Source: Amoebophrya sp. A120
Lineage: Eukaryota; Protista; Dinoflagellata
Reading direction: 5' to 3'
DNA length: 64,000 bases
NCBI GenBank assembly: GCA_905178155.1
Contig: CAJINV010000004.1
Location: 2,626,228 to 2,690,227, forward strand
Part shown: positions 1 through 61,896 of the stretch, one piece after another
Position numbering within the stretch: the first letter of the stretch is position 1
Layout: every line of letters starts with the position of its first letter
The notes under the pieces: generated by a model
Seen by the model: only the letters and a program-made list of their open reading frames with translations
Told to the model about the DNA's origin: nothing
Databases searched by the model: none
Made by a program: the position numbers and the translations under genes

Positions 1-748
1 TTTTGCGGAGAAGAGCTTGTTTCTTTTTGCAGATGTTCGTTTTCCTCCGCAACAAGATTCGGTTCTTTGGCTTCTCCGCCGATCAGGACGCCGATGCGGA
101 TAACGAGGACACGATGATCGTCATCTTCTTCATCATCTATGACAGTGCACAACTACTCCCCCTCCCCCTCATCTGTATAGCATGAACGGCAATACAAGCA
201 TCAGCAAGAATGCCGGTTTTGCATGACAGATTTGCACTGGAGTATAGTCCTACTTGGGCTACCAGAACTTGTCATGCACACAGAGCCAAGAGGCAAAGGG
301 TGGATTGGGTATTTGACATGACAAACGAGGGGGAGGGGGGGTTATGCACTGTCATATCATCCTTGTTCCGACCGCTGGGCGAAGGAGACTTTGCAGGAGC
401 TTTATCCGCGACATCTCTTTCAGCACCGGACAAGCCCACCTGCTCCGCAGCCTCGGCACCAGCATCTCGAGACGCCGTTTTTCCTCCGAGGAACAAGAAG
501 TCCTCGTGTAGTGTCTGACCGCGCAAGGCATCAGAAACTGCTTCGGCGAGAGCGTTTCTGTGGAGAAACTCCGCGAGAACAGGGTAGCTGACATTGCACG
601 TTGGGTCGTTTGAGTCCTGCAGAGCAACGTGGTGCGGATCTCGCAGTGCGACGGATAGAGCATTTTTCTCCTGTTGTACCAGTCCACCTGCAAGCGGTGC
701 TCCGGCCAGCCGCAGTGGGCTCTCGTCTTGTGTGGTGGAGGGAGGCAT
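1..748 (-). CDS. Hypothetical protein, runs off window start; one introner
   Basis: ORF 272..748 continues in frame (..RNKDDEEDDDHRVLV..) to base 1 after removing 138-356 plus one TCATC copy. Confidence 0.65.
138..356. mobile_element. Introner family B, 219 bp
   Basis: TIR TATGACAGTGCA..TGCACTGTCATA; DR TCATC/TCATC; frame restored. Confidence 0.9.
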
Positions 749-1726
749 GGTCTTCAGCTGGATTTGCAGCGTTCGACGGCAGCACCACTACAACCAAGGC
801 AGTTCAGCGAATGGCTAGGTGTGGTCCTTACAAGTGGGCGTGTGCGCCATCTTGCTCTTGCACTTGCTATCGCCGGTAACATCTAAATTGTCTAAGGGAT
901 AGGGATACAGATGAACATTATTTTTACGATGGTTCAATCTCAATCAACAACACGAGGACGCGGCCTTGTGCTCCCACTGACGTTGTGCGAGGTCGTTTGC
1001 CGGTGCCGGGTCCAGCGATATCAGAACTCGTGAGGCAAGTACGAATAGAAGCAGTGCCATAATTCACGAAGGCATGGGTCAACATGTAGTGTGAAAATGT
1101 TACATGAGGTCCTGAAGGAGCCAGCGCCAGCAGAACGAAGCAGACTTTAAGTGCAAGCGACAAGTGAAACGAAAGAATGATGTGCACCACAAAAATTAAA
1201 TGTTGACATTGACATTTGATGCCTCGTTTGGGTATGTTGAAAGTCTCTCTTGACTCCTGCTCCAGAGTCAGACCTAATCCGAAACATCCGACGCACCAGA
1301 CACTATCAAGCGCCATCAGAATCTTCAATACGAACATCGATGCGAAGATCAAGAACACGATGATGTTGATGTGTTTCGCCTTGGATTAAATTCTGCGTTT
1401 GCAGCGACGTCCTCGCCATGGTCAGGTATACACCAGAAAAAGATAAAAACTCATTAAATTATATCCACGACGACTACGTGGACGTACCGTTCTCGTCCAT
1501 CATCGATTTGGATTTTCTTTTCCATACACAAGCGCACAGTTTCTGCATGATACATTCATTATTCGTTGGCCATTCGTCGTGTGTTTCATTTTCATTGATG
1601 CAGAACATGGGAGGTCGAAAAACCCTCCTTTCATGAGGTCAAGAACCATCAATCAATCCACGAGCAGCGCAACAGGACAACTTGCAAGAAGTAGCCGAGT
1701 GCATCAAGTCCACCATAGCTTACAAC

Positions 1727-3965
1727 TCAGCCTGCCCGCAGCGGACTGTTGACGACTACTTCCGGATTGATTCCCGCGTTTTTTGCTTGGATTTCGGCTA
1801 ACACATTTCGCCCCACCTTCGGCTTCTTCCACTTCGCCAAGATTTCGTCCACAATGTGTTGGTTTTCCTGCAGTTCCGCACTGTCAAACGCGGTTTTTCC
1901 GTCGCTTTCCGCCTTCAAGTACGGATCCGCGCCGTGGTTCAGGAGTATCTTGATCGTGGATGTCCGGCCCGCCCGGCAGGCGGCGTTCAGCGCTTCGGTC
2001 AGCGTCTCGGCCCGGCGGTAGGACCCCTGGAGAATGGAGAGAATTTTCACCAGGCAACTGCCATGCCCGTTTTTCGCGGAGACCAAAAGGCCGGACTCGA
2101 GGGATGGGAGCGAAGTTTGGATATCAAGTGTAAAAATGTCTGGGTCTGGAAGAATGCAACTTGTCATGCTAAATCTGAAGCATGCAAAAATCTGTGTTGC
2201 ATGATTGCCAAATGGCGTCCAATTTTGACCAAGTCGGGACGCAGTTTCTCATGCAGGATAGGCATGAGAAAGATCGCACAGAATCTGTCATGCTAGGTCC
2301 TGCATTCCAGACCTCATGGGTCATGAAAAAGCTGCATGACAAATCGCACACTCTTCCAGACCCAGACATTTTTACAGTTGATATTGGAATTCCAGGAGCA
2401 ATTGCAGGGTGGCGGAATCTCCCCGGGTGCAGACAATTTGGACACCTAATAAATCAATATGTATACTTTTGCAGTGCCAGTGGACGCTCGTAATCGTCAT
2501 CGCCGTCGTGTGTCAACGCTTGGTGACATATTAGCATAAGTTTCGCACTACCTTAGTACAGCATTCGATTCAAAAATTCAAGTTTGTCGTACGCGAGCGT
2601 TGGCTGAAAGAAACTCCAGTATTACAATAACAGTATCTACGATCTATTCATACCCTCTTCCGCCGCGGCGCCGCACTGTATGAGTTTCCGTATCACGGCG
2701 TGATTATCGTGTTTCCGGCACGCGGAGGCTAATGCGGTGCCGACGGGCGCCTTCTTCTTGTCGAGTAGATACTCCACAACATCCAGTTTCCCCCGTTCTG
2801 CCGCGGCGGCCAAGGGTGTCAATCCCTTACTGGGGCCGAAAGTGGCGGTGCCGGTCACGGTGAGGTCCTGTCGTGGAAGGAAGTCATTGATTCTGTATCA
2901 TGTACTTGCATGCGTGCACAAAAAAACTTCGCCATGAATTGTTTGCAATCTTCTCGCAAGAACTTCTACAAGGCTTTTGCAGGCGAAGCATGTCCTTGAT
3001 GAAAAATAGCTACAGCCTTGAAGTAGTAGTAAGTACCTTATGCTGCACTAACAGATGGTCGACGTCCTCCAGGCGCCCGCCCTGCGCAGCGTAGACCAGC
3101 ATGTCGCCCAATTCCTGCTCCTGCTCGACACCTAAAGGTCCACGGTTAATTTTCGGTCCCCGCTTTACCAGGCTGACCTCGACCGACGGCGGGTCTGCCG
3201 GGGTCCATGACTCGTCGCCACCAACCAGGAAGTGCACCTTGGCATGTATGAAGCTTAAGCTTTTGCTTAGAAGAAGAAGCAAGGGGTCTCTTTTGGTCGA
3301 CGCAGTAGGCACATGGACCTAGCGGGGGACAATAGCATCTGCTTCTGCATGACATCAATCGCACGGCAAGCCGCGGCTACGGTGTATGTAAAGAAATAAG
3401 TACTTTCTCTTTTCGGTACTCCCGAAGGCACAAGCGGCCTAAATCCGGCTTGACTAGAGACTGTAGGAGTAATCTCGCTGATGAATCGGAGGACCTTGGG
3501 GTGAGATGTTATTTGATTTTGGAATCCAAAACCGAAACGAGAATTAAATGCCCGAGAAATGTAATGCCCATTTTGTTTTTGATTTTTTGCATCACATACA
3601 GGAAAACAAAGCGTAACTGTGACAACTATCATCTATCTGCATGCGTGACGAAAATCATTACTCAAGGCAAAGAATCCTTTGTACACAACGACGCTTTCGT
3701 CCAAATTCAACGGCTTGCAGACACAGTGTGCGGTCCGCGCCCAGGTTGCCTCCCCGAGCTCCAGTTCCTTTCTCGCTTGCGTGACGCCGGGCGGAATGGA
3801 GGGGATGTTCAGCAGAAATTCGTAACTGACCTCGCCGTAGCCGTGCAGCCAGCCTCGCCATTTCGCGCCCTGGCCGAAGAGCTCCGATTCCGAGGCGATG
3901 GAGGAGTCGCTTTGCTCTGCGGAGGGGGCTAAGCCTCCCGGCTCCGAGGAGGAGGAGGCAGACAT
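1727..3965 (-). CDS. Ankyrin-repeat protein (5' exon 3633-3965 tentative)
   Basis: TPLAAAAERGKLDVVEYLL, ALNAACRAGRTSTIKILLNHGADP, GKTAFDSA; GT-AG introns 2446-2653 and ~2868-3036; introner 2122-2383. Confidence 0.85.
2122..2383. mobile_element. Introner family A, 262 bp
   Basis: TIR TATCAAGTGTAAAAATGTCTGGGTCTGGAAG; DR TTGGA/TTGGA; join gives LLLEFQTSLP. Confidence 0.95.
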
Positions 3966-4444
3966 TTTTTTGCTACAACTGTCTGGAAAGACGGACTCTG
4001 TGCGAAATCGGAAAATTTTTCGGACGAAATACTCTCAGCAGAAACACAACATCGCATCTTCTCTGTAGTTCACGACGCCGTGTGGTCTCTCTTCACTCCT
4101 CGAAACTTTACCTGTCCAGGAAAACAGGCTATCCGATCACTTCTCTTTTGACACGGCATGATCGCAACTCTTTCAGGACGCAGACCGAGAGGCAAAATGA
4201 CATATGGATATGCGATGCGCGACAGTAAAAGTGCTCGTATTCCTATACAAAACGAATACGAAACACAAAGAGAAAGAACGACGACCCGAAACACGTGGAA
4301 GACTTGCAACATAAACACGGCCCTGTCTTCACTCGATCTCGATGCAATAGACGCTGCGACACCTTTCGAAAATAAGTGGCGCTAAGCCGTACGAACATGA
4401 CACGGCGCCAGCATCCTTTCTCAATCTAACAACTGCAATGCTGC

Positions 4445-6638
4445 TTACTTCACCAAATAACTGCATCGCCCACTTCCTGGGTCTATCTGAAATCGTCCGC
4501 CTTTCTCCTCGGCCAGCAACTCCTCTAGTAAGTGCTCTGGCAGCTCTATGAGGTTCGGGCCGAGCGGTGGCATATTACTTCCGGAGGACAACGACAACCA
4601 TTGCACCAGCTCGAAGTCTGTCTCCCACGCTTTCGCGGTGGCAAAGCTATGCGGGAGGATTCCGCGGAGCTGTGGAAAAGCAAACTGCCCGTCGCTCGTT
4701 CGTCTCGGTGAAAAACTACAGGGCGAGTCAGGCTCAGCAGGCGCGGGCGGTGCTGGTGAAGTGTTTTTAGGCTGGTTGCGTTCATAATCTTGAAGATTCA
4801 CGCGCGAAGATCCTGACTGATGGCTCTGCTTCACCGGAGACCCTACAACACGGCGTTTTTGTCGCTCGGCCGCTTTTCTTTCTTCCTCCTCCCACATTTT
4901 GGCGAGCCGAAGCACCACGGAAACCCCTCCTGCGACACAGGTATCCGGTTGGAAGAGCTGCACGGGGGGTCGTGGGTAGTTAAAACTAGGGGAATGACGT
5001 CGCGCCGGCGCAGTCATCCACGGCCGAAACGCCTCCACACCGATGAGCGATTCGCAGCCCGCGATGGCGATTTTTTCACAACTTTGCCTGTTTGTATTTT
5101 GATGTTGTTCGTCACGTAGACCGAACGCTACGTAGTCCTCGAGCGCATTCGGCGCAAACGGTTCCTCGCAAAAGCCGATGCCCACAGGTTCGAACACTTG
5201 CCGCATTAACGTTTCCACGAAGAAAACTTGCTCTGATCCGGTTTGCCACTCCTCTTGGAAGCCCATCAAATCCACGAAAAGGTGGATATCCGGACCGACA
5301 ATTCGGCGGGCGCCATGGAACACTTGCCTTGCCCAGGCGAGTTGGACGTCGGGGGGGAAAAGAGCATCAACTGCAGATGCGCCTCCCATCTTGATGGGCG
5401 GAGTAGGAGCCGGCTCATGTTGTCGTTGTCGTTGTCTTGCCGTGTGGTCCACTTGTACTACTGGCACTTCTCCTACGCCTACCTTGTTGTCAAATAGACC
5501 AAACTATGGATTGCAAAAATGTCTGGGTCTGGAAGAATGCAAGATTTGTCATGCATATTTCTCATGACTCATGATGCCTGTAATGCAGGACCTAGCATCG
5601 CAGACTTTTAGAGGGCTTCCTGATGCACCTTCCGCATGAGAAGTGCCCTGTTCGTGTAGCACAAACTGTGCCCCTCTTGCTGGTCATGCAATACAAATCT
5701 TTTTAGAGTCCAAAAACAGCATGACAAGTTGCAATCTTCCAGACCCAGACATTTTTACAGTTGATACAAACGGCGGCCCCACGAAGAGTTTGAACGCTTT
5801 CAAGTGGTAGCAACGCATATGCATTGCAAAAGTATCGTACTCGTATAAATGCAAGTCTTGCATTACAAATCTTGTCCCCAAGGCAAATCTGCATTACAAA
5901 TTTTATTTCTCATGCTGCAGAAATTTGTATTGCATTTATACGAATACGATACTTTTGCAATGCATAACGCATCAACCGCTCCAATTTTGCAGCCAGCAAC
6001 CCTATCGCCTCCTCTGGGTCAAAAGAAAACGGAATTTCCACGGTGCAGTAAGCAACTGGCCCACCTCGTCCTTGATTTTGACGCGAGAAGCCGCGGAATG
6101 GTGTAGCTCCGTTCTCAGAGGACCATGCTGCAGACAACAACTCCGCCAATTCCACTCCCTGAAGCTGAGCTTGCAGCTGCCACAAGGCCGTGTCAATGCC
6201 ACTGATTACGGCTGCGGCGTCCGGGTTGCGGCAGTTATACGAAGAGGAAATGAACAAGCTAGCATCATCTCCTGATGTTGATGAATTATCCTTCGCACTA
6301 GCCACCGGCTCATTGTTTGCCAGCGGGTTGTTCCAGATCGCAGGTCCCGCCGTGCCAGAAATAGCCTCCAGGCTCTTCGCGACCCTTTCCTGTAACGAAT
6401 CGGCTACCTCTTCTTGCCTGGATAAAAAGTCTCCGGCGCCTGATGAACTAGCTCCTTGCCAAATTCTCTCCGCCTCGCCAGCATCGCAATAGGAACAGCC
6501 TACACCAACTTTGTCGCCAAATGTGATTTCGCAGTGACTGACCGGCCGGATGAGCGTCTCTGTCCATCTTACCGGGCGCTGCCGAGTGAAACGAATGGAG
6601 AAATTTTGTGGCGCGACGGGCGGCCGAAGCCTCGCCAT
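4445..6638 (-). CDS. Enolase-superfamily enzyme (mandelate racemase/muconate lactonizing family)
   Basis: ISGIDTALWQL, AFKLFVG, RIVGPDIHLFVD, CEEPF, AGCES, QPDTCVAGG; continuous after removing two introners. Confidence 0.85.
5505..5766. mobile_element. Introner family A, 262 bp
   Basis: TIR TATGGATTGCAAAAATGTCTGGGTCTGGAAG; DR CAAAC/CAAAC. Confidence 0.95.
5818..5966. mobile_element. Introner family C, 149 bp
   Basis: TIR TATGCATTGCAAAAGTATCGTA; DR ACGCA/ACGCA; join LMRCYHL. Confidence 0.95.
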
Positions 6639-7220: not shown

Positions 7221-9772
7221 CTACACATTCACTCTGGTACGCCGTTTCCGGTTCGCGCGGATCTTGATCTTGGTGAACTTGTGCATGTACCGCGTCCGCG
7301 TGCGCATGCCGTACCGTCGCTGCATGCGGTTGCACATCCTCCGCTGCACGATCAACCCCAGGGGCTGCTTGGGCGACCGGGTTTTCAGGCCGTTCGCGTA
7401 CACCCCCCACCGGGTACAGGGCACCTTCTTCTCGGATTTCGCCTGCGACCCGCCCCCGTGTGGGTGGAACGAGGCCTCCATCGCGTTCCCCCGGACGCTG
7501 GGCCGAATACCCAGCCGCCGGTTCACGCCGGCCTTGCCTTTAAACCTGATAGAAGACGCAGTGCACTCGGCTTTTTAGTTGTACTCATGTGCTGTGGATA
7601 ATCTTTCATTCTTTGAATTGCACATTCAAATGAAGACTTTATTATTTAGGTTCTTATCTATTTCATCACTAGGACTGTCGTCTGCGCATGACAAATTTGA
7701 AGAAGAACTGATAAAATACCTGTGATCGTGCATGATGTTCGACACTTGGCCGATGGTCGCGTAGCACTCGTTGTGAAACTTCCGGATTTCCGTGCTGTTC
7801 AGCTTCAGTGTCGTGTATCTGGGGCAACGGTCAAGCAGGATGGCGAACGCCCCCGCCGCTCGGGCCACCTGGCCTCCGTATGGAATGCAAATATGTCTGG
7901 GTCTGGAAGGATGCAAGGTTTGTCATGCTTGCGTGGCATGACTGACGAGTTTGTGATGCGTGTCCAAGAAGAGACCCTTTTTTATTTTCTTGTCATGCAA
8001 ACACGCAGGAGCTTGTCACGCGGTATTAAGCGCAATACTAAGCCGCGCAAATATTTCTCATGCTTGGCTGCACATAATTACAGAGCATTCACTATTCACA
8101 ACCCAGCATTACAAGTTTCCAGACCTCCCAGACATGTTTGCATTTGATACTCCGCGCCCCGGCTCAATTTCCACGTTGTGCACGATCGAGGACACCGGTA
8201 TTTTCCCGAGTGGCAAGGCGTTACCGGGCAAAATGTTCGCGTTTTCGGAGGCCACCACCTGGTCGCCGGGGCGCAGCGTGTCCTGTGCAAAAGTATCGCA
8301 CTCGTATTGCAGTCATGCATTACAAATCTTTTTGTGAAGGCAAATCCGCAGTACAAATTTTATTTCTCATGCTGAGGAAATTTGTAATGCATTTATACGA
8401 GTGCGATACTTTTGCAATGCATACAGTGCGTGCGGCGCCAAAATGTAAGACAACACCCCGTCGTCGTACTGGATGAGCGCAATGTGCGCGCTCCGGCCCG
8501 GGCAGTACTCGATGCGGAGACAGGTCGCGGGCACGTCCTTGCGGCCGCGTTTGAAGTCCACGATGCGCAGGCGGTACGCACACTCCGCGCCCTGGTGCCG
8601 CACCACCACTTGCCCGGTCACGTTCCGGCCCGCGTGGTTGATGTGCGGGACCGACAACTGCTTCACCACCCGACCCCGAATATCCCACAGAAAAAAGCAG
8701 GCAGGTCATATTTGTAATGCAAAAATAAATATACCGGAAAAATCTGTCATGGGCGGCCCCATAGCATGCTGTTTAGGATGCGCAACACAGATTTTTCTGT
8801 GTGTTTCTTTTTGCATTGCAAAAATGCCCTGCTTGCTTTTTTCTGTGGGATACCGAAACGTGTCTTGCGGGTACTCCTCGAGCAGTTGCAGGAGCTTGCG
8901 CTGTATCCTGTGCAGAAGTATCGTATTCATAGTAATCGCATTCATGCATTACAAATTTCCATCCCAAGGCAAATCAGCATGACAAATTCTGTTTCTGATG
9001 CTCAACTAATTTGTCATGCGATTTATACAAGTACGATACTTTTGCGATGCATACGCTGTTTTGCGAACGTGAAGGGCGTGAAGACTTGCTGCTGGGGCAG
9101 CGGGCAGGCGAGCTTCGGGTACCCGGTCTCAAAGTCGGTGAAGGGGATCCGATTACGCTTCAGAATGGAGTAGCAGTTCGCGAACGTGCGGGTCTGCGAA
9201 AGCAGGTGCTGGTGGGGCTGGATGGAGGTTGGTTGGTCATTTCTGTCTACGAGTACTACGCAAGAACAGCGGGCGGGAGCGGGACTAGTAGAAGTTTGCT
9301 GGTAGTAGAAGTAGTTGCCCTGCTGGCCGCTTCTGTTGCTTTGCAGGCGGATCACTGAAGAAGAGGAGCCCAACGACGAGCTTGTGCAAGTAAAAATTGG
9401 TCGTCCACCAGCACTCCGCGAAGTACTAGATGATCTCCTTGTAGTACTTGAGGCCTCCAAGCGGCCCCCGGTCGAGAATCTTCTCGTCAGAACTGCTACT
9501 GCTACCTGTGCGAGGACCACATACGAAGTCGAGGAGGACGCCGCTCTTGTTGACCCGACTAAAAGGGGCCGGGCCCCCGCGCTTGTTGAGGAGGTTCCTC
9601 GGAGCTGCGACAGGTCAACACGTCGTGGTGGGGCTGCAAGAAGAACATTCGAAGAAGTTCTTACAGCTTGACCGAGGGTTGGGCGGGGAGCACGAGCAAT
9701 GGAGGTCGAGGTCGTTAATCCAGCTACACGACCTCCTCCACAACAGGATGCTGGTAACGACATGTTGGTCAT
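7221..9772 (-). CDS. RPL2: Mitochondrial-type ribosomal protein uL2 with long N-terminal extension
   Basis: AGRNVTGQVVVRHQG, RIEYCPGRSAHIALI, GNALPL, HNVEIEPGRGGQVARAAG, GKAGVNRRLGIRPSVRG, HPHGGG; 4 introners plus GT-AG intron 7546-7719; start codon tentative. Confidence 0.93.
7879..8149. mobile_element. Introner family A, 271 bp
   Basis: DR CTCCG/CTCCG; removal restores conserved uL2 PGRGGQVAR. Confidence 0.95.
8279..8423. mobile_element. Introner family C, 145 bp
   Basis: TIR core GCAAAAGTATCGCACTCGTAT; DR CAGCG/CAGTG; join APHALRPGD. Confidence 0.9.
8681..8852. mobile_element. Introner family D, 172 bp
   Basis: TIR TATCCCACAGAAAAAAGCA; DR CCGAA/CCGAA. Confidence 0.93.
8904..9053. mobile_element. 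Introner family C, 150 bp
   Basis: TATCCTGTGC..GCGATGCATA; DR CGCTG/CGCTG. Confidence 0.9.
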
Positions 9773-10889: not shown

Positions 10890-13800
10890 TTACACGTCCT
10901 CCGGGTACGCCACCACTTTGCCTGTCTTATGGCGTTCTCAACTGTTAGTACATTCTCAGCTGCTACATGGACTTGTGATGCAAGAACCGCAATAGTGAAA
11001 GGAACAAGCTGTTGCAACTCTCGCATCACAATAAATTTGGCACTGATAATTTAGGCAAATTGTTTAGCCCTTCGGGAATTTTTTGCCACGCGCCGGAGCT
11101 TCATCAGCTTGATCGTCTGGCGGCTCATGGTAAATTTGCATGACAAATCATGCAACAGTTGAGAAGGTAACCGATTTGAGAACGCCATATGTGTCCAGAG
11201 TCACGGTCTTCATGAATCGGGATGGGTTCGGACATGGTCGGGGCTTGGGCAGATCGCCCTTGGTATCGCAAGAAAAAACTGTTTCACTGTGAACTTGTGA
11301 TGCAGGAAATGGCACACAGAACTCTTTGTCTTGCTACACCTGCAAGGCATTGGATTTTCAAGCGTGTAGTTTTCCCGTGGGAAGAGCGCATGACAAATTT
11401 TCAGTGTCATGTGTAGCAAACTTGTGATGCAGACCGTGCAAAGTCATCACAGTGAAACAGTTTTTTCCTGGGCTACTTGGTTGCCAGTTTGTACTGGAAG
11501 TATCAAATGCAAATATAGATCTGAGTGTGGAACACTGCAGCAAGCTTGTCGCACTAAATCTGAATGATGCAAAAATCTGTGTTCTTGCGTGAGTACAACC
11601 GAAAGCTGTCCGCGTTTGACCAAGTTGAGAGGGAGTTTTTCATGCAGGAAGGGCATGATAGAGACCTCAAAGTAGAATCTGTCATGCTAACTCTTCTTGC
11701 ATTCCAGACCTCATGGGTGCTCATGGAAAACTTGCATGACAAGTGTTCCAACGCGTTCCAGACCCAGACATATTTGCATTTTTTCATAGGAAGACTTCCG
11801 GCGCGAACTGCTCGGACAACTTCAACGACTCGGCGTATGGATGTGTCAGGATTGAAATCGTCAAAGTTGAAATAGTTTGTGATGCGTAAAATGCAACGCA
11901 GACATTGTCTCTATTGCAGAGGATGCAAGGGAGGCAGATTGTAAGCCTGTTGAGGGGTAGAAATAGAACTGCTAAAGTAGCATGACAAATGACGTCGCCC
12001 TTAACCAAACAGCATGACTAACTGGATTTAGGTTCTACCTAAATTTGTCATGCGCCGCTTGGAAATTGGGTTTCCGACTGGTATCCATTTTATGCATGGC
12101 AAATCATTTCAACTTTGTCGATTTCAAACCTGACGCTTCCATACGGTGGCGCCGGAGTTCTCCGAGCTCCCAGGGCCGCCGGTGCCAAGACGTTCCTCGC
12201 GAAGCGTTGCCACGTGGGCGGAAAACTTCGCGTCCGGGTTATCGAAGGGAAACGTCCCCCCTCCCCATATCAAGGCGGAACTTCTGACGCTGGATCTGTG
12301 GACACAAATCAGCTTTGTATTGCAGGAAGGGACGATTGCGGCCAGCTCCCCAATCTAGGTAGGGGCGTTTGGGTCTAGTTGCTCAGCATTGCAAACGGCT
12401 GCTCTTTGGGCCCAATAGCATGGAAAATCGCTTCAAAGGGCGCAAGCTTCTGCGTCTGCCCTTGTCTTCTTGCAAGACAAAGGTGATTCGTGACCGCATC
12501 AAATCAGCAACGCAAATCTTCGGACACATGCCTTTTCAATATGGGGAGGGCGAGTTTTTCCTTTCAATACAGGCCTCCCTCGACCTGGGTCGCCAGGGGG
12601 GTCCCCGCACACAGCTCCCCAATCGTTCTCGGGAACGGAGGAATCTTCTTCCCGGGGGGGCATCTTTCTTGCAACGGGTCGCCTTCATATGCATCTGCCA
12701 CTTCTTCTGGGTCGACGGCACAGCCGCCGTCCGTCAGGTCGACATGTATGAGGTTCCCAAGCGCTACATTCTCAACTGTTACATGAATTCATCGTCCACG
12801 CGATCAAGCTGCTTCGCGTGACAAATTTGCCTAGGGCCAAACAACACCTAAATCTGTGCGGAATTTGTAATGCTACAGGCGCAATCTCCCCCCTTTCACA
12901 CACTTGCTTTCCCATTCTTACGTCACAAATCCATGTAACAATTGCGAATGGAACAGTCGAGAACGCCATAATATGGCACCCGGGGTTGTCGCTCAGCATT
13001 GTAAAGGCTTGCGGGTCGCCGAAGAGGGACTCCCCGAACACGTTCGCCTCGTGCGTGGTGAAGATCACGGTTATACCGTAGACGGCCGCGAAACACATCA
13101 CGTTGCGAACCACAAGGGGGTATCCTGTGCAAAAGTATCGCACTCGTATTGCAGTCATGCATTATGTATTATGGTAAATCCGCATTATCTCATGCTGAGG
13201 AAATTTGTAATGCATTTATACGAGTACGATACTTTTGCAGTTCATAGGGGGTGACTTGTCGGGTCCAGGCCCTTGGTGGCCTCGTCCAGCAGCAGCAACC
13301 GGGGCCGCATCGCCAGGGCGAAGGTGATATCCTGTGCAACAGTAATATCGCAGTCGTAGTAATTGCAGTCATGCATTACAGATCTCCTTTCCAAGGTAAA
13401 ACTGCATGACAAATTCAATTTGCCATGCTGAGAAAATTTGTAATGCAATTTATACTAGTACGATACTACTTTTGCAATGCATAGGTGAGGCGGTACCGCA
13501 CGCGCTCCCCGTCCGAGAGGTTGATGACCGGTAAAGTTGTAGATTGGTATGTCGTCCCGGTCTCTTTGGGGACCGCGTCCAGGATTTCGGTAAAGTTGAA
13601 GAAGGACTCATGGTTCTTTTCGAAGCCCTCGTCCCACGTGGCAGCCTCTGAGTAGTTGCGGTTGGCGGGCCCAAACAGGCCCTTCCCGTGCTGCAACAGC
13701 TTGTCGTACATCAGGGTAACCCTGGCCACCAGCTTGAGGTCCTCGTCCGTCAACTTATTTGGGTTTCCCCCCAACAACTGCTGGCGGATACTCCGGCCTG

Positions 13801-16800
13801 GCAATGGCGTGTTGGAGGTCACCAGCTGGTAGTGCCGCTGCAGGCGGATCATGGCAATGTCCCGGTCGTTTTCGGGGTCCACTGCGCGCTTTTTCTCGCC
13901 CGTGTTTTCCGCGATGGGGACGCCATTCCAGCGGATCGTGCGCTTCCCCAGACTCGGTTCGGGGAACGCTGACACCAACTTCATCAGGACGCTTTTCCCC
14001 TGGCCCGAGGGCGCCGTGAGGTGCGTGATCGACCCGGCAGGGAACTGCAGGGTCTGCCCCCCCGTGCAATTCTTGTTGTTCGCAGCACATCGCACCGGCC
14101 ACAAATATTGCTGTGTGCCTTTTCCGATGTCGCCCGCGTATGACAGTGCGCAACCTGCTCCCTTGTCGCCCCTCATCTGTCATGCAAAACCCCAAATGAT
14201 CCAGTCGCTGCCCTGTCTGTGGCACTGTTTGCATGACTACAGATTCCGGAAGCCCAAACAGTAGTACTACATCAGGCACATAAATTTGTCATGCGGAGGC
14301 TCCACGCGTGCTGGTGTTTGTATTGCTGTTCATGCCAACATACAAATGACGGGTAGGCGGAGCAGTTGTGCACCCTCATACGCCGCTTATGAGGTTCACC
14401 CGCTCCATTTCGAAACTGACCCGATCCCGGGTCCGGATATTGTGAGGAAAAATCCCTGCTCCCCATATCTGTGATGCTCATTCTTTGTGGTCACAAATCA
14501 GCTTGGTCTTGCAGAAGCAGAAGGTACCTGGCTGTATTTTCCAAGCCTGTTCGAGTTGTATGCATAAGGCTACTAGCAGTTCGGCATGGCTGCAAACAGG
14601 TTTGCAGTAGTCGAAAGTGCACGACAGACTGGCTGCAGAATGCGCCACAACAAGGCTCGTCCCACTCCCCTATAGGCAAGACGAAGGCGATTTGTGCCCA
14701 CAAATCAGCATGACAAGTTCCCAACATTTTGATGATATGGGGAGGGGGGATTTTTCACTTTGATACCGGTCCGTCGAAATCCAGAGCGGGTGCGTGGCGT
14801 TCTCGCCCCGCGTGGACAAGTTTGCAAGGAAAAAACTGTGTAAGTGTAACTTTGTCTTGCAGACGTTGCAATACAGCTACACTTGTCTTGCTGGATATGC
14901 GTCAGAGGCTATTTTCCTACATGTTTTCGTGTACTAGCTTACGCATGGCAGGTTTTCTCTGTCATGCAAAACAAATCTGTGATGCTGTCCCTGCAAAAAA
15001 ATTACACTTACACACTTTTTTTCTTGGATAACAAGGAGATCAAATTCATAAACTTTGCCAGCAGTGGGTTGTAGGTCGCGGCCTGGATATTCCCGGTAGC
15101 GCCCATCAGCTCCCCGGTGATCCCCTGAATCGCTTGCGCCCCGGAATTATGGATTGTAAAAATGTCTGGGTCTGGAAAGTTACAACTTGTCATGCTGTCG
15201 TTGGATCCCAAAAAAATCTGTATTGCGTGACCAGCAACAGGGGTCCAGTTTGTGTTACGCGGAGAGGGCATTTGTCATGCGAAATAGGAATCAGGAAGCC
15301 ATCTAAAAATCTGTGATGCTAGATCATGCATTACATGAGTCATGGATCATACAAAATATGCATCACAAATCCCGGAATCTTCCAGACCCAGACATTTTTA
15401 CATTTGATAGGAATAGGCCGCCGTCACGTCTTGTCCCGTCAAAGCGCCGTACATCATGGAAGCCACGAGCATCGGCATGGCCATCACCCCACTGATGGCT
15501 CCCAGCGTCTTTTTCACGAAGAGAAACTTTTGCAGTTTGCGTTCAATTCGCAGAACTTGCTGCTCCGTTTCCTGGTTCAGTTCCACAAGATTCTTTCCGA
15601 TCTGTGCATTCTCGCGATAGTCGTTCAACTTTTCCGGGCTTCCAAGCTGCGCACGATACTCCTGCGCCATCTCTTGCGCCCGACCCAGCTCCCCGCGAAT
15701 TGCCCCAATTTTGTCATCCAGGATGGGCCAATGCACGGTCAGCAGCACCTGCACGACCATCACGACGAGGGGAAACATGGCCGCTGCGGTGCCGCCCGTC
15801 GCCCAGGTGGCCCCGAAGACGAAGAGCATGCTGGCACCGTGCGTGGCGATCGCAGGTATGTAGTCGAACAACATGGAGACCATCCCGGGAATTTGCTGCA
15901 GCGCCACCGCGGCGTCCCCCGTGAGAAGCCGGCTCTCGGGTCCGGTGGCTAGGCTGGAGACTTTTTCAATCAATATCCAAGAAAAAAACACAACCAGAAT
16001 CACATTTAGGCGGTTTTCTTGCATCAGAAACTTGCCCTCTCGCATGACAGATATTTTATTGCATTGCAAAATTATCACAAAGGGAATAAATCGCCCATAG
16101 CTTTTGGCTGTGAAGATGCATTTTTGCGCATGCCAAGAGTTTTCGTATATGCAAAAACGTTGGCCATGTGATCAGAGCCCTCGCCCCACAGACATGCCTG
16201 AAGCTTCTCGGGATGGTCTGAGATGCCTGCTCCTATTGAAATGGCTGACCTAAATGGCCTGAACTGGCCAGATCCCTGACGCGGATCCCCTAACTTACTA
16301 CGAAGGCAAAGCCATCGCGATCGCAGCGAAATGAAGGGAGTCCGCTCGGTCTAGACGTTCAGAATGACCATCCTGAGGGGGGTGACTCCCACCAGGATCG
16401 AGCACCTAGCCGACAGCATTGAGGGAGGTAGTCCCGTGCTGTTTAGCCCCTTGACTCTGACCAGGATCAGGCTCATCCCATGCGATGAATTGGAACAGGA
16501 TGCAACGCACGCAGCCAGAGGCTTTCGCCCTGTCTGCTGTGAGATTGAAGCGCTGGAATTGATTAGAAGAACCCCGCGCGGCGAAGCTTTAGTCACTCAG
16601 TGTGGCAGGTGTGTTCAAAGTCCAACAAGAAATGTGCAAAAGTAATTGTGATAATGTTTTTTCTTGAATTAATCAATTGAAGTTTCACATTAGTCTGAAC
16701 CCAGGTTAGCATGGTCTGGCGCGCCTGGTCGCAAATGATGAAGAGCAAAACGCCCCCCAACAGTGGCAGTGCAACGCTCTGCAGCACCGGCCAGGTCAGC

Positions 16801-19264
16801 ACCGTCCAGCCTGCTGTGCCTGCAACGGCGAAGCCTCCCTTGGCAGCCGCAGAGAACACCAATCCCTGCAGGTGCAGCAAGTTTCGGAGGATCAACACGC
16901 TTCCAAAAGAAGACGCGACCCCCATGGCGACGTACGCCATCAGGTAGCCCAAGTACTTCCGCCCGAAATGCTGGCCAAACGCAGTGCCAGCGAACAGCAT
17001 GCGCACCTTATCCTGAGTAAAAACGTACCCACGCCAGAGTTGTAATGCAGATTTGCAAAGACAGGAAGACTTGTAATGCGCATCCGCATGAGAGCCATTT
17101 CCAATTGTGCTTTGGAATTTCTGATGCTGTGAACAGGATGAGCAGATGAATCTGTGACGCGGCTGCACTTGCTAACCTGCACTATACTGCAGAGTGCAAC
17201 TTGTCATGCGTGACTCACAAAACTCCTAGGTTTGTGTTGCAAAATCCCCATCCTGACTCTGGTATGGGTACGTTTTTACTCAGGATACACCTGGCGGCAC
17301 CGGTGACAACCTCCCTTGAACTTCGCGGCATATCAAATGTAAAAGTGTCTGGGTGGTCTGGAAGATTGCAACTTGTCATGCTAAATCTGCAGCATGCAAA
17401 AATCTGTGTTGCATGATTACCAAAAGTCGTCCAGTTTTGACCAAGTCTGGAGGTAGTTTCTCATGAAGGATAGGCATTAGAAAGGTCTCGCAGAATCTGT
17501 CATGCTAGGTCCTGCATTCCAGACCTCATGGGTCATGGAAAAGCAGCATGACAAATCGCGCATTCTTCCAGACCCAGACATTTTTACATTTGATACGGAA
17601 AATCGCGACTTGATGCTCGCGACACCGCCCTTGAACTTGCGGTACGCGGACACGGTGGCGTTGCGCGCCCGGTCGAAGCTGTTGGCAACCTTCCCCAGCA
17701 AACCGCCTCTGGCTGACGACAATAGTTGTACCCGGCGCTTGATGCCCGTTTTTCGCACCAGAAAGCTCGTGCCTTTAATGTTCGAGGGCACGTGGAGGCG
17801 CGACGACGTCTCAACATCAAGGTCATGATGAACTTCCACGTCGTTTTCTCCATGCGGCCCGCCGTCCGCGAAAGTGTCGCCACCCAAACCGTTCAAAGTC
17901 GTTGGTGTGTTCATCATGGTGTAGCCTTTGTCCGTCGGATCGGGATCCGCATCCGGCAGCATGTCAAATGCAAATATGTCATCGATGGGTTTACTGGGAG
18001 AGTGGAAAACTCGTCATGCGTGCTGTCTTGAATAATTCAATGTAAAATCTGTAACTGTATTACATGACCTATTCTATTACCCCTCAACCTCCACTATCAT
18101 CCACTTTGACTTTACGACCAATCTGTATTGCATGACCAACGCGACAAAGTAAGGACCCGTTTTTTGATTGTCATGCGCATGCGCAGTTCTTAACGCGAAT
18201 TTACGCATGAGGAAGTCGTGCCCGGAACTACATCTGTCATGCTTGGCTGCACGACTCAGGAGTATGTTGATGTTCAATGATCGCCACTCACTTAGCAACA
18301 TCACAAGCTTATACATTATTCCAGACCCAGATGACATCATATTAATTTGCAACGCATACAGCAGGCGCCCTACTTCCAATAAGTCCTCCACCGGTAGAAT
18401 GAATTGCAAAAGTATCGCTATCGTACTCGCATAAATGCATTGCAAATTTCAGCATCATCCTCAGCATGAGAAATAGAATTTGTAATGCTGATTTCCATTC
18501 AAAAAAAGATTTGTAGTGCATGATTGCTGCACGACTACGAGTACGATACTTTTGCACAGGATAGGCAGATCCTCGTCGTCGATGTCCTCGTCCACCTTCG
18601 AGAAGGCCACATCTCGTATCACGCGAAAAAGGTGTTACAGTTCTATACGCATTGTGTTGCGAGCCCAGCATGACAGACAACCTTTGTCATGCCAGAAATT
18701 GCTCCGAGTTTCTGTTTCATTTCATCGAGTTCATTTCCCTCAATATGGTTTGCGCATTGCAAGTTGTCCTTCTCGTCAAGCAGAGAAATGAACTTGTGTT
18801 GCTGAAGTTTTTACAAAATCAAATGTGTAACAACTGTAGCCACGCTTTTTTCTTTTGATATCCCCTACCGTGGTTTTATTGTTACTGAAGCCCGGCAGGG
18901 GTGGGAGCTTTGACGCGGCGGTCCCGTTTGAAGATGTCCATACACGCCGAAGCGTGTCCAAGAACTGCTTAAACCGGCGAACGAATTTTTGCTGCTCCTG
19001 GTGCTGCTCCATCTGCGAGAGGAACGACGTGTTTTCATCATGGTGGTCTCGTCCCGTCGATTCCGAATCATCGAAGCTGGACTGTTGAATCGGCTTTATC
19101 GTTTCATCGTTCCTGGTCAGAGCATGATCCGGCGCAGGAGCTGCTTCGTAGGTCGTGAAGATGGAGGACCCTTTGATGTTGACGGCGACGGAAAAACTGG
19201 CCGAGTTGAGCAGGAGCAGGTGCAGCAGGGCCACAAGAAAGTTGCCCGAGGCACACAGAGCCAT
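10890..19264 (-). CDS. ABC transporter (signal peptide, TM region, one NBD) split by 18 introners
   Basis: Hydrophobic N-terminus; TM exons at ~16.7-17.0 and 15.4-16.0 kb; Walker A APSGQGKS, signature-like LSDGE, Walker B LLLLDEAT, H-loop IFTTH; all 18 joins in frame to TAA at 10890. Confidence 0.88.
10928..11189. mobile_element. Introner family G, 262 bp
   Basis: TIR TATGGCGTTCTCAA; DR TGTCT/TGTGT. Confidence 0.9.
11264..11475. mobile_element. Introner family I, 212 bp
   Basis: TIR core AAAAAACTGTTTCACTGTGA; DR CTTGG/CTTGG. Confidence 0.92.
11501..11788. mobile_element. Introner family A, 288 bp
   Basis: TATCAAATGCAAATAT..ATATTTGCATTTTTTCATA; DR GGAAG/GGAAG. Confidence 0.92.
11836..12143. 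mobile_element. Introner family H, 308 bp
   Basis: ~38-bp imperfect TIR TATGGATGTGTCAGGATTGAAATCGTCAAAGTTGAAAT; DR CGGCG/CGGTG. Confidence 0.9.
12240..12569. mobile_element. Introner family F, 330 bp
   Basis: TIR core CCTCCCCATAT; DR CGGGT/CAGGC (2 mismatches); frame restored. Confidence 0.85.
12747..12970. mobile_element. Introner family G, 224 bp
   Basis: TATGAGGTTC..GAACGCCATA; DR ACATG/ATATG. Confidence 0.85.
13121..13246. mobile_element. Introner family C, 126 bp
   Basis: DR GGGGG/GGGGG; join DPTSHPLVVRN. Confidence 0.93.
13328..13483. mobile_element. Introner family C, 156 bp
   Basis: DR GGTGA/GGTGA; join RLTFALAMRPRLLLLDE. Confidence 0.93.
14139..14380. mobile_element. Introner family B, 242 bp
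   Basis: TATGACAGTGCGCAAC..GTTGTGCACCCTCATA; DR CCGCG/CGCCG; element+5 removal in frame. Confidence 0.85.
14438..14765. mobile_element. Introner family F, 328 bp
   Basis: TATTGTGAGGAAAAATCCC..GGGATTTTTCACTTTGATA; DR CCGGA/CCGGT. Confidence 0.9.
14821..15030. mobile_element. Introner family J, 210 bp
   Basis: TIR core GTGTAAGTGTAA; DR ACAAG/ACAAG. Confidence 0.88.
15148..15409. mobile_element. Introner family A, 262 bp
   Basis: Family A TIR; DR GGAAT/GGAAT. Confidence 0.95.
15974..16671. mobile_element. Oversized introner (J-like ends), 698 bp
   Basis: TATCCAAGAAAAAAACA..TGTTTTTTCTTGAATTA; DR ATCAA/ATCAA; join KLQLIEKVSS. Confidence 0.82.
17009..17287. mobile_element. Introner family E, 279 bp
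   Basis: TIR TATCCTGAGTAAAAACGTACCCA; DR CACCT/CACCT. Confidence 0.95.
17331..17595. mobile_element. Introner family A, 265 bp
   Basis: DR CGGCA/CGGAA; nearly identical to 40093-40354. Confidence 0.95.
17962..18358. mobile_element. Degenerate family A-like introner, 397 bp
   Basis: DR CAGCA/CAGCA; join GRLLPDAD. Confidence 0.85.
18398..18563. mobile_element. Introner family C, 166 bp
   Basis: TIR core GCAAAAGTATCG; DR GGTAG/GGCAG. Confidence 0.88.
18617..18860. mobile_element. Introner family K, 244 bp
   Basis: Imperfect TIR TATCA..GAAAAA..TACAGTT; DR TCTCG/TCCCC; join TTVGDVAFSK. Confidence 0.78.
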
Positions 19265-20766
19265 ATTTTCTCCCGGGTGGCGCTCCAGGGCCGCGGCAAA
19301 GCGGAAGAGGGAATGAACTATCGGCGATAGGCTTTATTTAAAGGGAAAGGCACAATCCTTCCCTGCGCAATCAGCGCTCCAATTCTCGTCCGTTCTTCTG
19401 TCAGTTCAAATCAATCATGGGCACTTCTTCAACTTCTCGACGATGATTTAATATTTCCACATATCGAAAAATACGAATTCGAAGTTTATGAAAGGACAAA
19501 ATGCCGTAACCTGACAGGCACATGATAAGAGGGTGAGACCACAATGAATTCAGTTTTGCACGATCAAAAGGTTGAATTTTCAGAGTCCAAAGTCCGAGCT
19601 TCACCAGCATTCAAGGCACGACCGAAACATGGAAAATAACCGAGGACCGAAAATAAAGATAAACCGAAGGGCGAAATTGCGATCACCAAGCTTCTTGATC
19701 TTGAAATTCAGCAGAGTACCGACTCTCGAAATTCAGAACACCGATCTGCGAAAAGCAGAACACACACCGATCTACGAAAATCAAAACACCGATCTGCGAA
19801 AATCAAAGCCATCACTTGTTATACCGACCTGGCTATTATCAATCAAAAGCACTGCATTGCATACGCTTTAAACTTAAACAAAAAAGCAAGATTTGAAGTC
19901 TTCTCGCTTGATAAAAAACCAGAAAAAGCGTTTTCGCGAGACAGTAGTTGTGTTGTCCATGCTCACAGACCAAAAGAACAGGAACAGCCCTGAGTTCCTA
20001 CGGCCGCGACCCGTCCGGCGGCGGGGCGCCCACCAGCTTACAAAACCCAGTGGCTGTCTTGCAGTCGATGGGAATCGTAAAGTCAGCGCGTTTCATCATT
20101 CTTTTCTCGTAGTTCCTGTCGTTTCATCTATGGCGCCATGAGGTTGTACAGGTGCATTCTCATTCGCAAAGCACAGCCTCTCGTACTCGTAAAAAATCGA
20201 TAAGAAGCATTATTCATTTTCGAAAATTAGCGCTTCGGGCACCCGGAGGTGTATGCTACTGAGTAGTTTAACAAAAAAGTTGCATTTTTGGAAATTCAAC
20301 ACCAAATAAAGGACGATTCTATATCGGATGTCATTCAGGGTTTCGATTTTTCTCGATTTTTTTTGTTTTCTTCGAAACAGATGGATATTCATATTCTAGC
20401 TGAAACGGTTTCTGACTATGACTATGTAGTAATGTGACGATGGTAGATGTAAAGGTTCTCGTTTGGCGAGGTATCGTAAACCATCCTTGTAGTTTTTAAA
20501 CATGCCTGCATGCATTCAGGAAGCAGAGGCAGAGGTCGCGCTTTCATAAAACAAATTACATCATCGCCTTCGCGATACAAAGATGCACGGTCCTGCCTTC
20601 TGCTCCTGATCTGTCAAATCATATTTTTTTTGGGTGATGCTAATCATAGTTAGTAAAAAGGACTGACGAGGAGCTCCTCCTGCCTCTAGACCGCTTGTGA
20701 GTAGAACTTGCTTTGGATTTTGTTGCTTGAACGAGGTGTAGTTTGTGGCCAGCTCGCTCCGTATGA

Positions 20767-51258: not shown

Positions 51259-51337
51259 ATTTGAGGTTTCTATAGAGAAGCGATTATGTTTATCATTATA
51301 GTTGATTAATATATTTATATAAGGCAAACTTTGGGGC

Positions 51338-51770
51338 CGGAGAGGGTACGGTAGAGGTTGGGGAGAGGTTTCGTAGAGGTTAGACAGAGGGTCGGAGAGG
51401 TAAAGTAGAGGGTCGACAAAAACAAGAGGGTCGGGGAGAGGTAAAGGGAGAGGGTACGGAGAGGGTCGGGAGAGGGTGCGCAGTATAGGGACCCGTATAG
51501 CGGCGCTATACGCGCGCAGAGGGTCGGTAGAGGTTGAGTAGAGGTCAAATAGAGGGTGGGGGGAGAGGGTGTAGAGGGTCGGAGAGGTTCCACAATATAG
51601 GGCGACCCTCTAAGCGACCCTCTACCGCGACCCCCTCCGGGAGCCTCTATTTTACCTCTCGGCGGACCCTCTCGGGACCTCTTGGACCCTCTCCCGGACC
51701 CTCTCCGAACCTCTCCCGGACCCTCTCCGAACCTCTCCCGGACCCTCTCCGGGACCCTCTACCAGAACCG
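51338..51770. repeat. Inverted minisatellite (AGAGGGTCGG array facing CCCTCTCCG array)
   Basis: G-rich repeats 51338-51590, complementary C-rich repeats 51604-51765. Confidence 0.85.
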
Positions 51771-53482: not shown

Positions 53483-53609
53483 AATCTTCGGAATTGCGGC
53501 GATCCACATCCCTTGGATTGGGCTAGGGCCGCCTGAGCACACGTAGGTCGTTCCTCCGTGGAACATAGCTTGGACTCCCCGTAAAAAAACCTAGGGGCAT
53601 CATGGGCGA

Positions 53610-59100: not shown

Positions 59101-59971
59101 GGTCCTAGACAACTTCTTTCTCCACCACACCAGGAACAGGGGCTTCTGTGTTTTTCAATTCATGTGGTTGTTTTTCTATGGTTTAACAAAAGAATCATAT
59201 GTTCAAAATTAGCGAATCCCATCACAGAGGATCTTGCCGAGAATCGAAGAAATTTTCATATGGAGAACCAGACATATTTATGAAGCTGTGACTACCTTTT
59301 TCATGCAAAAAACTTCAAAACGCTAAGCGTAAGGTGAAACCATAAAAACCAGTCTACTCTACTTTCATGCTATGTGCAACTCGGCACCTTCTAAAAGACA
59401 ACTTTACGGATACGGGTATGATATAAGAAAACATCAAACACCTATGATTGCGCTACTGAAATGTGCCTAAATTTGAAACAAATGGAAAAATGCAAATGAC
59501 TGTTACTTGATTTATCGCATCACGGTATCGACGCAGATTGCGCTATCATGGGAAGAGATGCTGAGCTGGCAGCCTGGCTAGACCACTGCTCAGGAGTAGT
59601 ACTGTCCCGTTGTACTGCTGGCCTGGTTTGTTCTGCAGCTTCCTCGTTGAACTATGGCACGAGGGACGGAGTCGGAGTCCGAAGATCTCGTCCTGACACA
59701 ACGGATAGCACGGCACCACGAGCTGCCAGCACTGAAGTACCAGCAAGTGAACGTAGAAGGTTGGCTGTTGAATTCGGTTATCGCACTACAGTTTCATGAT
59801 CTTCAAGAACCTGATGATGCAGCGGCTTGCGTTCGCCCTCCTGCGCCAGACGGAGGATGAAAAGAAAGTAGACGCATCAGGTACATAGATGATGCGCAGC
59901 AGGCGGTGACTTGTTTTCTTTGGTCGTCATACAGGAACTAGGGCAAGATGAACCAGGGAGCGATGAAATCA

Positions 59972-61896
59972 CTAAGGCGCAGGTGGAGGCGGTGGCGGCG
60001 CGGGGGGCTGTGGTGGTACTGTCCCGCTCTGGGGCATACTCATCATTTGCATCATCTGCATCTGCGTGGCCATCATGTGCTGGTAAGCGGCCCCCTGCTG
60101 AGCGGCGCTGCTCACCGGAGACACAGCATTTGCAGCAGCTGGAACTGGTGGTATGGCAGCAGCAACTCCTGTACTAGAAGAAGTTGATGTTCCTGTTGTA
60201 TTTCCTCCCGCTACGCCCTTCATAGTCGCGTTAAAGTTCGGGGGAAGCGGGGCCAAAGACGTTGAGGGGGGACTACGCCGTGGGCTGCGGGACCGAGAGC
60301 GCACGCTGGCGGCTGGTTGAGGGACTACTCCTGTAACAACACGACTTTGTGGTGCGCCAATTCCTCCTGGCACGCCCATACTCGAGGCCGTGGCGGTCGC
60401 GGCGAAGGGAGCGCTGCTCTTGCCTCCAGTCAAGATCGCCGTGGAAGTAGATGATCCACTTCTGTTGTTCGCCGCCGCACTGGCTGTATTTGCAAACATG
60501 TGGTAGGGCAGGTTGGTGACCACCCGGCCAGCGGCTTTGGGGACTGTGCCCTCGGGCGGGGGCCCCGGAATCACGCTGTTTTGCGGGCCCTGGATGGAAA
60601 AGCCCTGCATATGAAATGCAAAAATGTCTGGGTCTGGAAGATTGCAACTTGTCATGCTGTTTTTGGACTCTAAAAAATTTTGTATTGCATGACCAGCAAG
60701 AGGGACACCGTTTGTGCTACACGGGCAGGGCATTTCTCATGCGGAAGGTGCATCAGGAAGCCCTCTAGATGTCTGCGATGCTAGGTCATGCATTACAGGC
60801 ATCATGGGTCATGAGAAATATGCATGACAAATCTCACAACCTTCCAGACCCAGACATTTTTACAATCCATACTGCACGGGAAACGGCAACAGAGGGCGCT
60901 GCTGGTTCATGTGCTGCTGTGGTTGTAGTGGTCCTGCTCCGAACATACCAGGTTGCATCACGAAACTGTTCGGGCCGCCCATCATGCCTGCTCCTCCCCC
61001 CGCTAGTACACCTCCCACGCCCAGTCCTGCGGGCGGCACCGTGAAACCTGCCGCAGTTCGGAGTTCCGACGTGCCGTGCGCGTAGTGGCAGTTGTCCCCC
61101 CACTGACAATAGCCCTTCAAATGTTTCTGGCAGATCTTCGTCTTATACAGGTGCTCGCGGCCCGCGAAACAGGCGGGAATGGGCCGGTTGGCCGGCGGCC
61201 CGGTGAGCGCGTTCATCTGTTGCTCGCGGTCCCGTTCCTCTTTCGTCACCTCGCGGACGTGAGGACCACCACGACGATGATGGCCCCCGGTAGCGGAGGT
61301 TGACGCTGTGCCATTCGCGTAATTCTGCTCGTCGTCACTACTGTCGTCGCCGCTGCCGTTGTCGTCGTTGCCGGTCGCTGCTTCCTCGTCGTCCTCCGAA
61401 TCCATCCAGGCGAACTCCCGTTTTTTCTTCTTCTTTTTCTTCTTCCCGGAGTTCATCCCTTCGCCCTGCTCCTCTTTCGCCTTTTTCTCGAGAAGCTCCT
61501 TGGCCCGCTGTAGCCGCTCCTCCCGCTCCTCCTTCTCGGTCTGTTTCCGGAAATCCTCCAGCTCTTTCTCGGTCAGCTAAAAAGTGATGAAGGAAAGTTT
61601 GTATAAAATTCATTAGAGAGGACAGGGGCCGTGCTGCCAACAGTGGTAGTAAAAATGCAGTTGTATCTTCAAACATCAATGAAACAATCTCTCTATCGCT
61701 AAAACAGGGTACGTAGATATTAAACATAGAATCTTGTTTCATCTACCTGTGGATTTATATCGTCATTGACGGCTTTGTCCTCCTCGTCCTCCTTTACTTG
61801 CTCTCGCCAGTCTTTCGCCTTGCTTTTGACTGTGGCACCTCCAGCACCCACGACGGCTCCCCGCTTTGCGCCAAGCGGGTTCTTGCGGCCAAGCAT
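59972..61896 (-). CDS. CCCH zinc-finger (C3H1) protein with low-complexity tail
   Basis: YKTKICQKHLKGYCQWGDNCHYAHG (C-x8-C-x5-C-x3-H); GT-AG intron 61577-61746; introner 60610-60871. Confidence 0.85.
60610..60871. mobile_element. Introner family A, 262 bp
   Basis: DR CTGCA/CTGCA; reverse-complement relative of 5505-5766. Confidence 0.95.

Follow-up and report, generated by a model that had tools for sequence, protein, structure and literature searches.

Why do introners of many families, short inserts that are removed from RNA as introns, carry the same internal motif, GCAT[G/C/T]ACAAA, in Amoebophrya sp. A120? We addressed this question in a 64-kb stretch of contig CAJINV010000004.1 (the window) and in 396 kb of related metagenome contigs, and all results below refer to these sequences rather than to the whole genome. 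A preliminary description of the window had suggested that the motif is a family-independent cis element, such as a binding site for a splicing factor or a transposase or a chromatin signal, or alternatively that the canonical introns carrying it are decayed introners. Sequence comparison now indicates that the motif is under purifying selection, that it recurs at a fixed spacing, and that it is most probably a double-stranded DNA site.

The strict motif occurs in 68 copies in the window (32 on the plus and 36 on the minus strand), where dinucleotide shuffles hold 0.76 on average and four at most, so that the claimed enrichment over background is borne out; GCATAACAAA has 0 copies there. Unconstrained expectation maximization drifted to A-rich or palindromic matrices, and fixed patterns were used instead. 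The wider form of the motif reads GCA(T>A)(G/T/C)A(C>G)A(A/G)(A/G)T, and its core, GCAT[G/T/C]ACA, has 145 copies in the window, 126 of them within elements with terminal inverted repeats (TIRs) spanning 13.1 kb. The core reaches 9.4 per kb in these elements, 7.5 per kb in GT-AG-type introns of the genes of a nested transposon (six of eight introns; two boundaries were later revised, which slightly lowers this density and leaves the counts the same), 2.8 per kb in host GT-AG introns (three of 12 candidates, of which one is doubtful), 0.04 per kb in exons (one copy in 22.8 kb) and 0.16 per kb in other window DNA (four copies in ~24.6 kb of non-coding sequence, with 2.3 expected by chance). The doubtful host candidate, 3319-3684, holds three cores; when it is excluded, three cores stand against 0.16 expected. 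Presence of the motif in canonical introns without TIRs, as had been described, thus holds for a subset and fails for the other host candidates, and the scarcity noted in exons is a chance level, seen also in the other DNA, rather than a depletion. Eight of the 11 positions cited earlier carry strict copies (2334, 5891, 7686, 11388, 31566, 31891, 32488, and 32512 in place of 32513), those at 2161 and 14708 hold the core but have G in the tail and are not strict, and there is no motif at 8818, the same element having one at 8711. HIP1 provides a cyanobacterial precedent for a repair process that generates a motif; such a process was rejected here on the grounds that, outside introns, the motif is no more frequent than by chance.

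Some 50 short inserts with inverted ends (TAT..ATA) and with target site duplications (TSDs) of 5 bp were found in the window. They are listed here without strand, together with the motif copies and the host gene that holds many of them.

138..60871, both strands: core motif copies, 145 in all (68 strict 10-mers; 126 in TIR introners)
2122..2383: family A introner, 262 bp, TAT..ATA ends, 5-bp TSD; further A-type starts at 5505, 7879, 11501, 15148, 17331, 17962, 20782, 35662, 36999, 38201, 40093, 46414, 49431, 49918 and 60610
5818..5966: family B introner, ~150 bp, direct motif pair at 5860 and 5891 (31 bp); further ones at 8279, 8904, 13121, 13328, 18399, 37970, 39036, 42690 and 42900
17009..17287: family H introner, 279 bp; family consensus with six motifs in one orientation, in three pairs 31-33 bp apart; further ones at 36572, 43430 and 48454
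12240..12569: family G introner, ~322 bp; others at 14438 and 42236
11836..12143: family F introner, direct pair in the region of 11980 and 12012, consensus spacing 32 bp
10928..11189: family D introner; others at 12747, 36219 and 41930
11264..11475: family E introner; related ones at 14821, 15974, 18617 and 46712
138..356: family I introner; others at 14139 and 48910
8681 and 41613 (family C) and 37741 (family M): introners with the motif present
10893..19444, minus strand: host gene; an RNA-like contig skips its introners exactly (element plus 5 nt), and its exons have no core

Deleting each insert together with one copy of its duplication restored long open reading frames (ORFs) on the minus strand. 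In the RNA-like contig X3, whose run type is a guess, the introners of one gene are skipped exactly, with 15 joints shown and 16 not shown. Most intron and exon boundaries are our own annotation, RNA-like contigs backing the 15 joints of X3 and one joint of a second contig, X7; raw RNA runs of 2026 gave 36, 1 and 0 mapped reads. In the inferred register only one of the 52 window introners is GT-AG. The joints fit an intron made of one base, the element and four bases. The first intron base is G in 23 of 52 window introners, compared with 25% at other TSD positions (p = 0.003), hinting at a residual preference for a GT donor, and the acceptors are almost never AG. The introner at 15974-16671 measures 698 bp, apparently with a motif-free insertion of ~450 bp, and is still skipped in X3. 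A repeated element without the motif (51305-52097, and L074:9065-9866 among the contigs), with 89% identity to a JACKZZ01 contig, has long inverted purine/pyrimidine tracts.

To extend the sample, metagenome assemblies were scanned for family A ends. At least 143 loci were found, of which the 123 from assembly JACKZZ01 were kept and the 20 from other assemblies, with motif levels at background, were dropped. When merged, the JACKZZ01 loci gave 396 kb with 322 elements, 308 of them carrying the core, and 966 of the 1228 contig cores lie inside these elements; about half of the cores outside are in sequence that is homologous to a family but lacks intact ends, and 94 fall in no such class. As this design over-represents family A, the spacing statistics were weighted by group. 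Window and contigs together yielded 374 elements, 358 with the core and with a median of five copies of the wider form; on shuffled DNA the element finder returned one false element in 173 kb. All families and groups have TAT-N7-AAA ends and 5-bp TSDs in common: the end matrix of the 374 elements reads TAT, seven variable bases and at least three A, 309 of the 322 contig elements begin with TAT (a start that the finder favours), and the TSD is perfect in 286 of 374. In the TIR arms of groups A, B, H and G the variable positions match their mirror position at about the chance rate, with few exceptions and with B lower, which suggests that the ends are constrained in sequence rather than as a hairpin.

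The motif links what otherwise falls apart. At E 1e-3, 370 of the 374 elements are connected when the motif is left unmasked, while masking it splits them into 32-46 components, which were pooled conservatively into ten groups. The motif thus occurs across at least ten groups without other detectable homology, and common ancestry of the families, the explanation that the earlier text had singled out for checking, leaves a motif that survives masking. In each of the ten largest family alignments conservation is higher in the motif columns than in the rest of the interior. Position 5 is G in 586 copies, C in 301, T in 203 and A in only 16, and C at position 2 (C2) is nearly invariant. The families had been called unrelated, which holds for their flanks, not alignable between groups, but not for their ends and TSD length; these common features make it likely, from sequence, that the introner families form one superfamily. 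A scan of viral contigs for paired motifs returned 120 loci, none with introner homology.

The arrangement of the copies is as regular as their sequence. After weighting by family, copies in the same orientation peak at distances of 31, 32 and 33 bp (3.3, 3.3 and 1.2, against a null of ~0.3), and the 31-33 bp peak exceeds all 300 permutations. This spacing characterizes eight of ten groups, being found in at least half of the elements in seven of them and in 29% of group B, where an 18-bp class is commoner; it occurs in 12% of D and in none of C, and it appears also among sites outside detected elements (60 pairs). With 10.5 bp per DNA turn, 31-33 bp corresponds to three turns, and direct copies would sit on one face of the DNA. 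A distance profile, which had been proposed as a check, placed the first copies 32-33 or 40-44 nt from the element ends; copies lie in both orientations inside both ends and in register with them, as expected of subterminal repeats. The length of the spacers is kept within 1 nt at 0.89, versus 0.76 for control windows, and they often hold a degenerate inverted copy of the motif midway. Their sequence identity between groups is 0.35 as against 0.30 when shuffled, a slight excess that, like the end consensus and TSD length common to all families, could mark a functionless relic of an ancestral module duplicated within and between families. We consider such a relic highly improbable, as the flanks do not align between groups, substitutions are position-specific (A being rare at position 5 and C2 invariant), spacer length is conserved and the signal of selection contradicts lack of function. 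The proposal of a family-independent cis element, by comparison, is supported by the masking tests, the purifying selection and the fixed spacing.

Is the motif read in DNA or in RNA? Its orientation is independent of transcript direction. On the transcribed strand some introns hold one orientation only and others only the opposite one, and in group H all copies share one orientation in 23 of 28 elements. Position 5 showed no covariation between inverted copies (0.367 versus 0.384). Action in RNA, whether by pairing into hairpin arms or as a site for a splicing factor or a branch point, would agree with interiors that fold better than shuffles (mean z -2.3), with motif bases predicted to be paired at 0.74 versus 0.59 for other interior bases, which weighs against the DNA-level interpretation, and with 67 of 197 sites predicted to pair with another motif; the degenerate inverted copies midway could form local hairpins, and there is a slight strand excess (115 versus 82, for sites that are not independent). 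It is nevertheless very unlikely: single-orientation introns occur in both directions, which disfavours a single-stranded splicing-factor site in particular, copies do not covary, C2 to T changes are absent although G-U pairing would tolerate them, and no fixed distance is limited to the 3′ end. Orientation freedom and lack of covariation point to a site in double-stranded DNA and away from a signal in RNA, a conclusion that we hold with good confidence when all DNA-level readings are taken together, and of the functions first listed it is therefore the transposase or chromatin site, rather than the single-stranded splicing-factor site, that fits.

We propose that one protein, specific for this sequence in double-stranded DNA, likely binds along the GCAT[G/T/C]ACA(A/G)(A/G) array, and that the array likely began as subterminal repeats bound by transposase and common to one superfamily with TAT..ATA ends and 5-bp TSDs. 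A common array would let many families with different TIRs use one machine. More tentatively, the bound protein may help the host to treat the insert as an intron, whereby the array would be kept; for example, the DNA could be marked or looped so that a spliceosome lacking U1 cuts at set distances from the ends. Taken as a whole, including maintenance after insertion through a host role, this sequence-based account is the one to which we lean, at somewhat less than an even chance. Its last part depends on what happens to the motif in resident elements and in the following introns, several of which belong to the nested transposon.

7546..7719, minus strand: GT-AG intron of the uL2 gene (a label that was confirmed), with one strict motif (7686) and without inverted arms; boundaries inferred
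35369..35584, minus strand: GT-AG intron with cores at 35370 and 35538, acceptor side scoring as introner-like; joint in RNA-like contig X7
21231..35293, no strand assigned: introner with 5-bp TSD, split by the nested 13.8-kb transposon, motifs in both halves
21372..35185, no strand assigned: nested TIR transposon, 13,814 bp, 6-bp TSD
28560..33304, minus strand: likely DDE transposase gene, five introns with approximate positions 32442-32551, 31858-32014 (GC-AG), 31504-31600, 30980-31178 and 29701-29867
32442..32551, minus strand: GT-AG intron of this gene, strict motifs at 32488 and 32512, no inverted arms
31504..31600, minus strand: GT-AG intron with a strict motif at 31566 and with 20 nt of identity to the family A interior
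31858..32014, minus strand: GC-AG intron, strict motif at 31891
26064..26201, minus strand: GT-AG intron inferred for the second gene of the nested transposon, with two strict motifs
25294-25508 and 26708-26815: similar inferred introns of the second nested gene, one core each
26425..26637, no strand assigned: old introner in a nested gene, arms kept, TSD decayed; likewise 29705-29866 and 30984-31177

Single variants at C2 number six per 985 exact copies, which equals chance, where neutral decay of 1-2.6%, estimated from TSDs, predicts 16-32. Among 82 disjoint close pairs C2 differs in two of 272 comparisons, versus 48 of 393 for GCA outside the motif. Eight cores are found in GT-AG introns without TIRs, where decay of 20-30%, enough to erase the arms, predicts 0.8-2.1. 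In 63 elements with mismatched TSDs core counts hold at 0.96 (0.87-1.06), while those of control words from the interior drop to 0.71; subfamily structure confounds this control. The earlier alternative, that the canonical introns are decayed introners, is right for three nested introns that keep TAT..ATA arms and for the RNA-supported GT-AG intron that keeps one introner-like end; the other motif-bearing GT-AG introns are armless, and their motifs are too intact to be explained by decay alone.

These data must be set against the possibility that the motif is a signal for transposition only, its subterminal transposase or accessory sites decaying neutrally and the motif-bearing GT-AG introns being remnants of introners. 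All the DNA-level evidence (spacing, orientation freedom, no covariation) fits this explanation, as do the confinement of the motif to TIR elements at end-anchored positions, its decay together with the TIRs in a masked hidden Markov model (HMM) test, an overall constraint equal to that of the TIRs in close pairs, the three nested introns that are visibly old introners and the GT-AG intron with 20 nt in common with family A. It does not account for C2 decay that is not above chance, nor for intact strict motifs at near-introner density in armless introns, and we regard it as doubtful, if to be taken seriously.

Several points weigh against our proposal. That TSD mismatches can serve as an age clock is assumed. 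The five "fixed" positions of the motif differ at 3.5% in close pairs (55 of 1563), no less than the near-invariant TIR positions of these pairs (2.5%, 57 of 2292); C2 compared with TIR positions gives p = 0.08, and C2, on which post-insertion constraint mainly rests, was chosen as the extreme of ten positions. In the motif-masked HMM the motif falls with TIR identity (0.92, 0.81, 0.58), a trend confounded by masking and by cross-family hits, and a test of private changes had no power. Nine of the 12 host GT-AG candidates have no core, which argues that splicing has no general need of the motif, and most GT-AG introns were analysed without RNA support. No binding protein for the motif was found, nor, in the window or the 396 kb of contigs, an autonomous TAT..ATA element with the same ends and motif; the one transposase, that of the nested transposon, belongs to an element whose ends differ from those of introners, whose TSD is 6 bp long and whose end regions are nearly free of the motif. 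Maintenance of the motif after insertion is hence only modestly favoured.

Alternatively, the motif could be bound by a chromatin or transcription protein of the host that is no relative of a transposase, and elements that captured the motif would have been tolerated in genes, through read-through or lack of silencing, and have spread. This would suit a motif that is orientation-free, helically phased and retained in resident introns. It would suit also the 1235-bp element at 53610-54844, a natural control whose TAC..GTA ends fit N7-AAA, which has a perfect 5-bp TSD and no core, and which shows that similar ends can exist without the motif. The chance level of the motif in the other non-coding DNA is, however, unlike a general host site, and its register is fixed to the element ends; we therefore find this explanation improbable.

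The nested transposon has ends unlike those of introners and sits inside one. Its two terminal 1.5-kb segments hold 0 and 1 cores, and most of its 15 cores are in the introns of its genes. Contig X7 joins 21225 to 35294 across 14 kb (a loose end matched by eye) and may come from an allele without the insertion. The nested element itself is covered by none of the RNA-like contigs, which says nothing about whether it is expressed. Alignment block by block with the intronless homolog P0006 backs the five introns of the larger nested gene, which has an ORF of more than 1000 aa. The fold predicted for its first exon (pLDDT 66) has an RNase H-like core, the best Foldseek match being Hermes, weakly (E 4.9e-4, TM 0.28, rmsd 8.7), and VIA-align returned generic RNase H-like folds only (best Z 7.7). 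On this modelled fold the gene likely encodes a DDE transposase, in agreement with the label it had been given. The protein has conserved CxxH and TRW-like words, which we take to be associated with hAT, and its possible hAT-like nature is a lead from modelling. Searches of Pfam, word-based homolog searches, a PDB sequence search and Atlas gave no name for the nested proteins; one weak lead was FAM200-ZBED5 at 0.80, and the second gene (~23660-26887, minus strand) had no Pfam match. As its ends lack the motif, the nested transposase is at most a candidate partner of the introners. There is a homolog in Amoebophrya A25, and a homolog of a window protein bears the name of an A25 protein. A tandem duplication of ~240 bp lies near the right end of the transposon (34390-34880), and an inverted repeat with 44-nt arms, not of introner type, lies upstream of the 3′ end of the transposase gene (28158-28451).

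Introners of A120 have been described as ~240 nt long, with ends of TAT, 7 nt and AAA, with inverted and short direct repeats and with splice sites that are non-canonical (Farhat et al., 2021; PMC7789003). The window elements have the same ends, repeats and non-canonical removal, and their families resemble in length those in the available part of the supplement of PMC12130899. In its accessible text, PMC7789003 describes terminal motifs only, with neither a common internal motif nor a spacing, and reports no transposase in A120. Our literature search found neither the motif nor its spacing, although logos in figures or datasets could still show the motif; the motif strings appeared in three unrelated papers only and were absent from the supplement texts searched. 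Thus the introners are already published, and the internal motif and its spacing are likely unreported.

Comparable arrays are known from transposons, as far as the sections available describe them. The BED domain of Hermes binds subterminal repeats of hAT elements, quasi-palindromic pairs being bound cooperatively (PMC10368747), and there too a short motif is repeated in both orientations inside both ends. The Hermes site, however, has 4 bp and is unevenly placed (PMC10368747), whereas the motif described here, from sequence, has 8-11 bp, a period of 31-33 bp, many TIR families and a place in spliced introns. In the Emigrant miniature inverted-repeat transposable element (MITE), the partner transposase Lemi1 binds TIRs and, in a cooperative manner, also subterminal repeated motifs (PMC1636448); unlike the window introners, Emigrant and Lemi1 are pogo-like, form a single family and are not introns (PMC1636448). 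The canonical 8-bp TSD of hAT is found neither in introners (5 bp) nor in the nested element (6 bp), but the hAT5 and hAT6 groups, as excerpted, have TSDs of 5 and 6 bp (PMC12730594). These lengths match, which makes a hAT-type mover plausible, even if TSD length alone does not classify an element. By analogy, the array may work like hAT or MITE subterminal repeats, and binding is predicted.

The available text of Farhat et al. (PMC7789003) leaves open how more than 60% of introns, which are non-canonical, are removed without a detected U1, and what moves introners. In its boldest form, which we think unlikely, our proposal would have a protein, perhaps a domesticated transposase domain, bind the phased arrays and direct a U1-less spliceosome at fixed distances from the ends; tens of thousands of non-canonical Amoebophrya introns would then be defined in DNA, and a transposon bearing the array would make a perfect intron in either orientation. 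If the host role is true, the array would be a DNA-level mark of introns, for which our literature search gave no precedent. The motif unifies many strain-specific families into one functional class, serves as a marker for old GT-AG introns derived from introners, and offers a direct bait for finding the protein involved in the removal or spread of introners.

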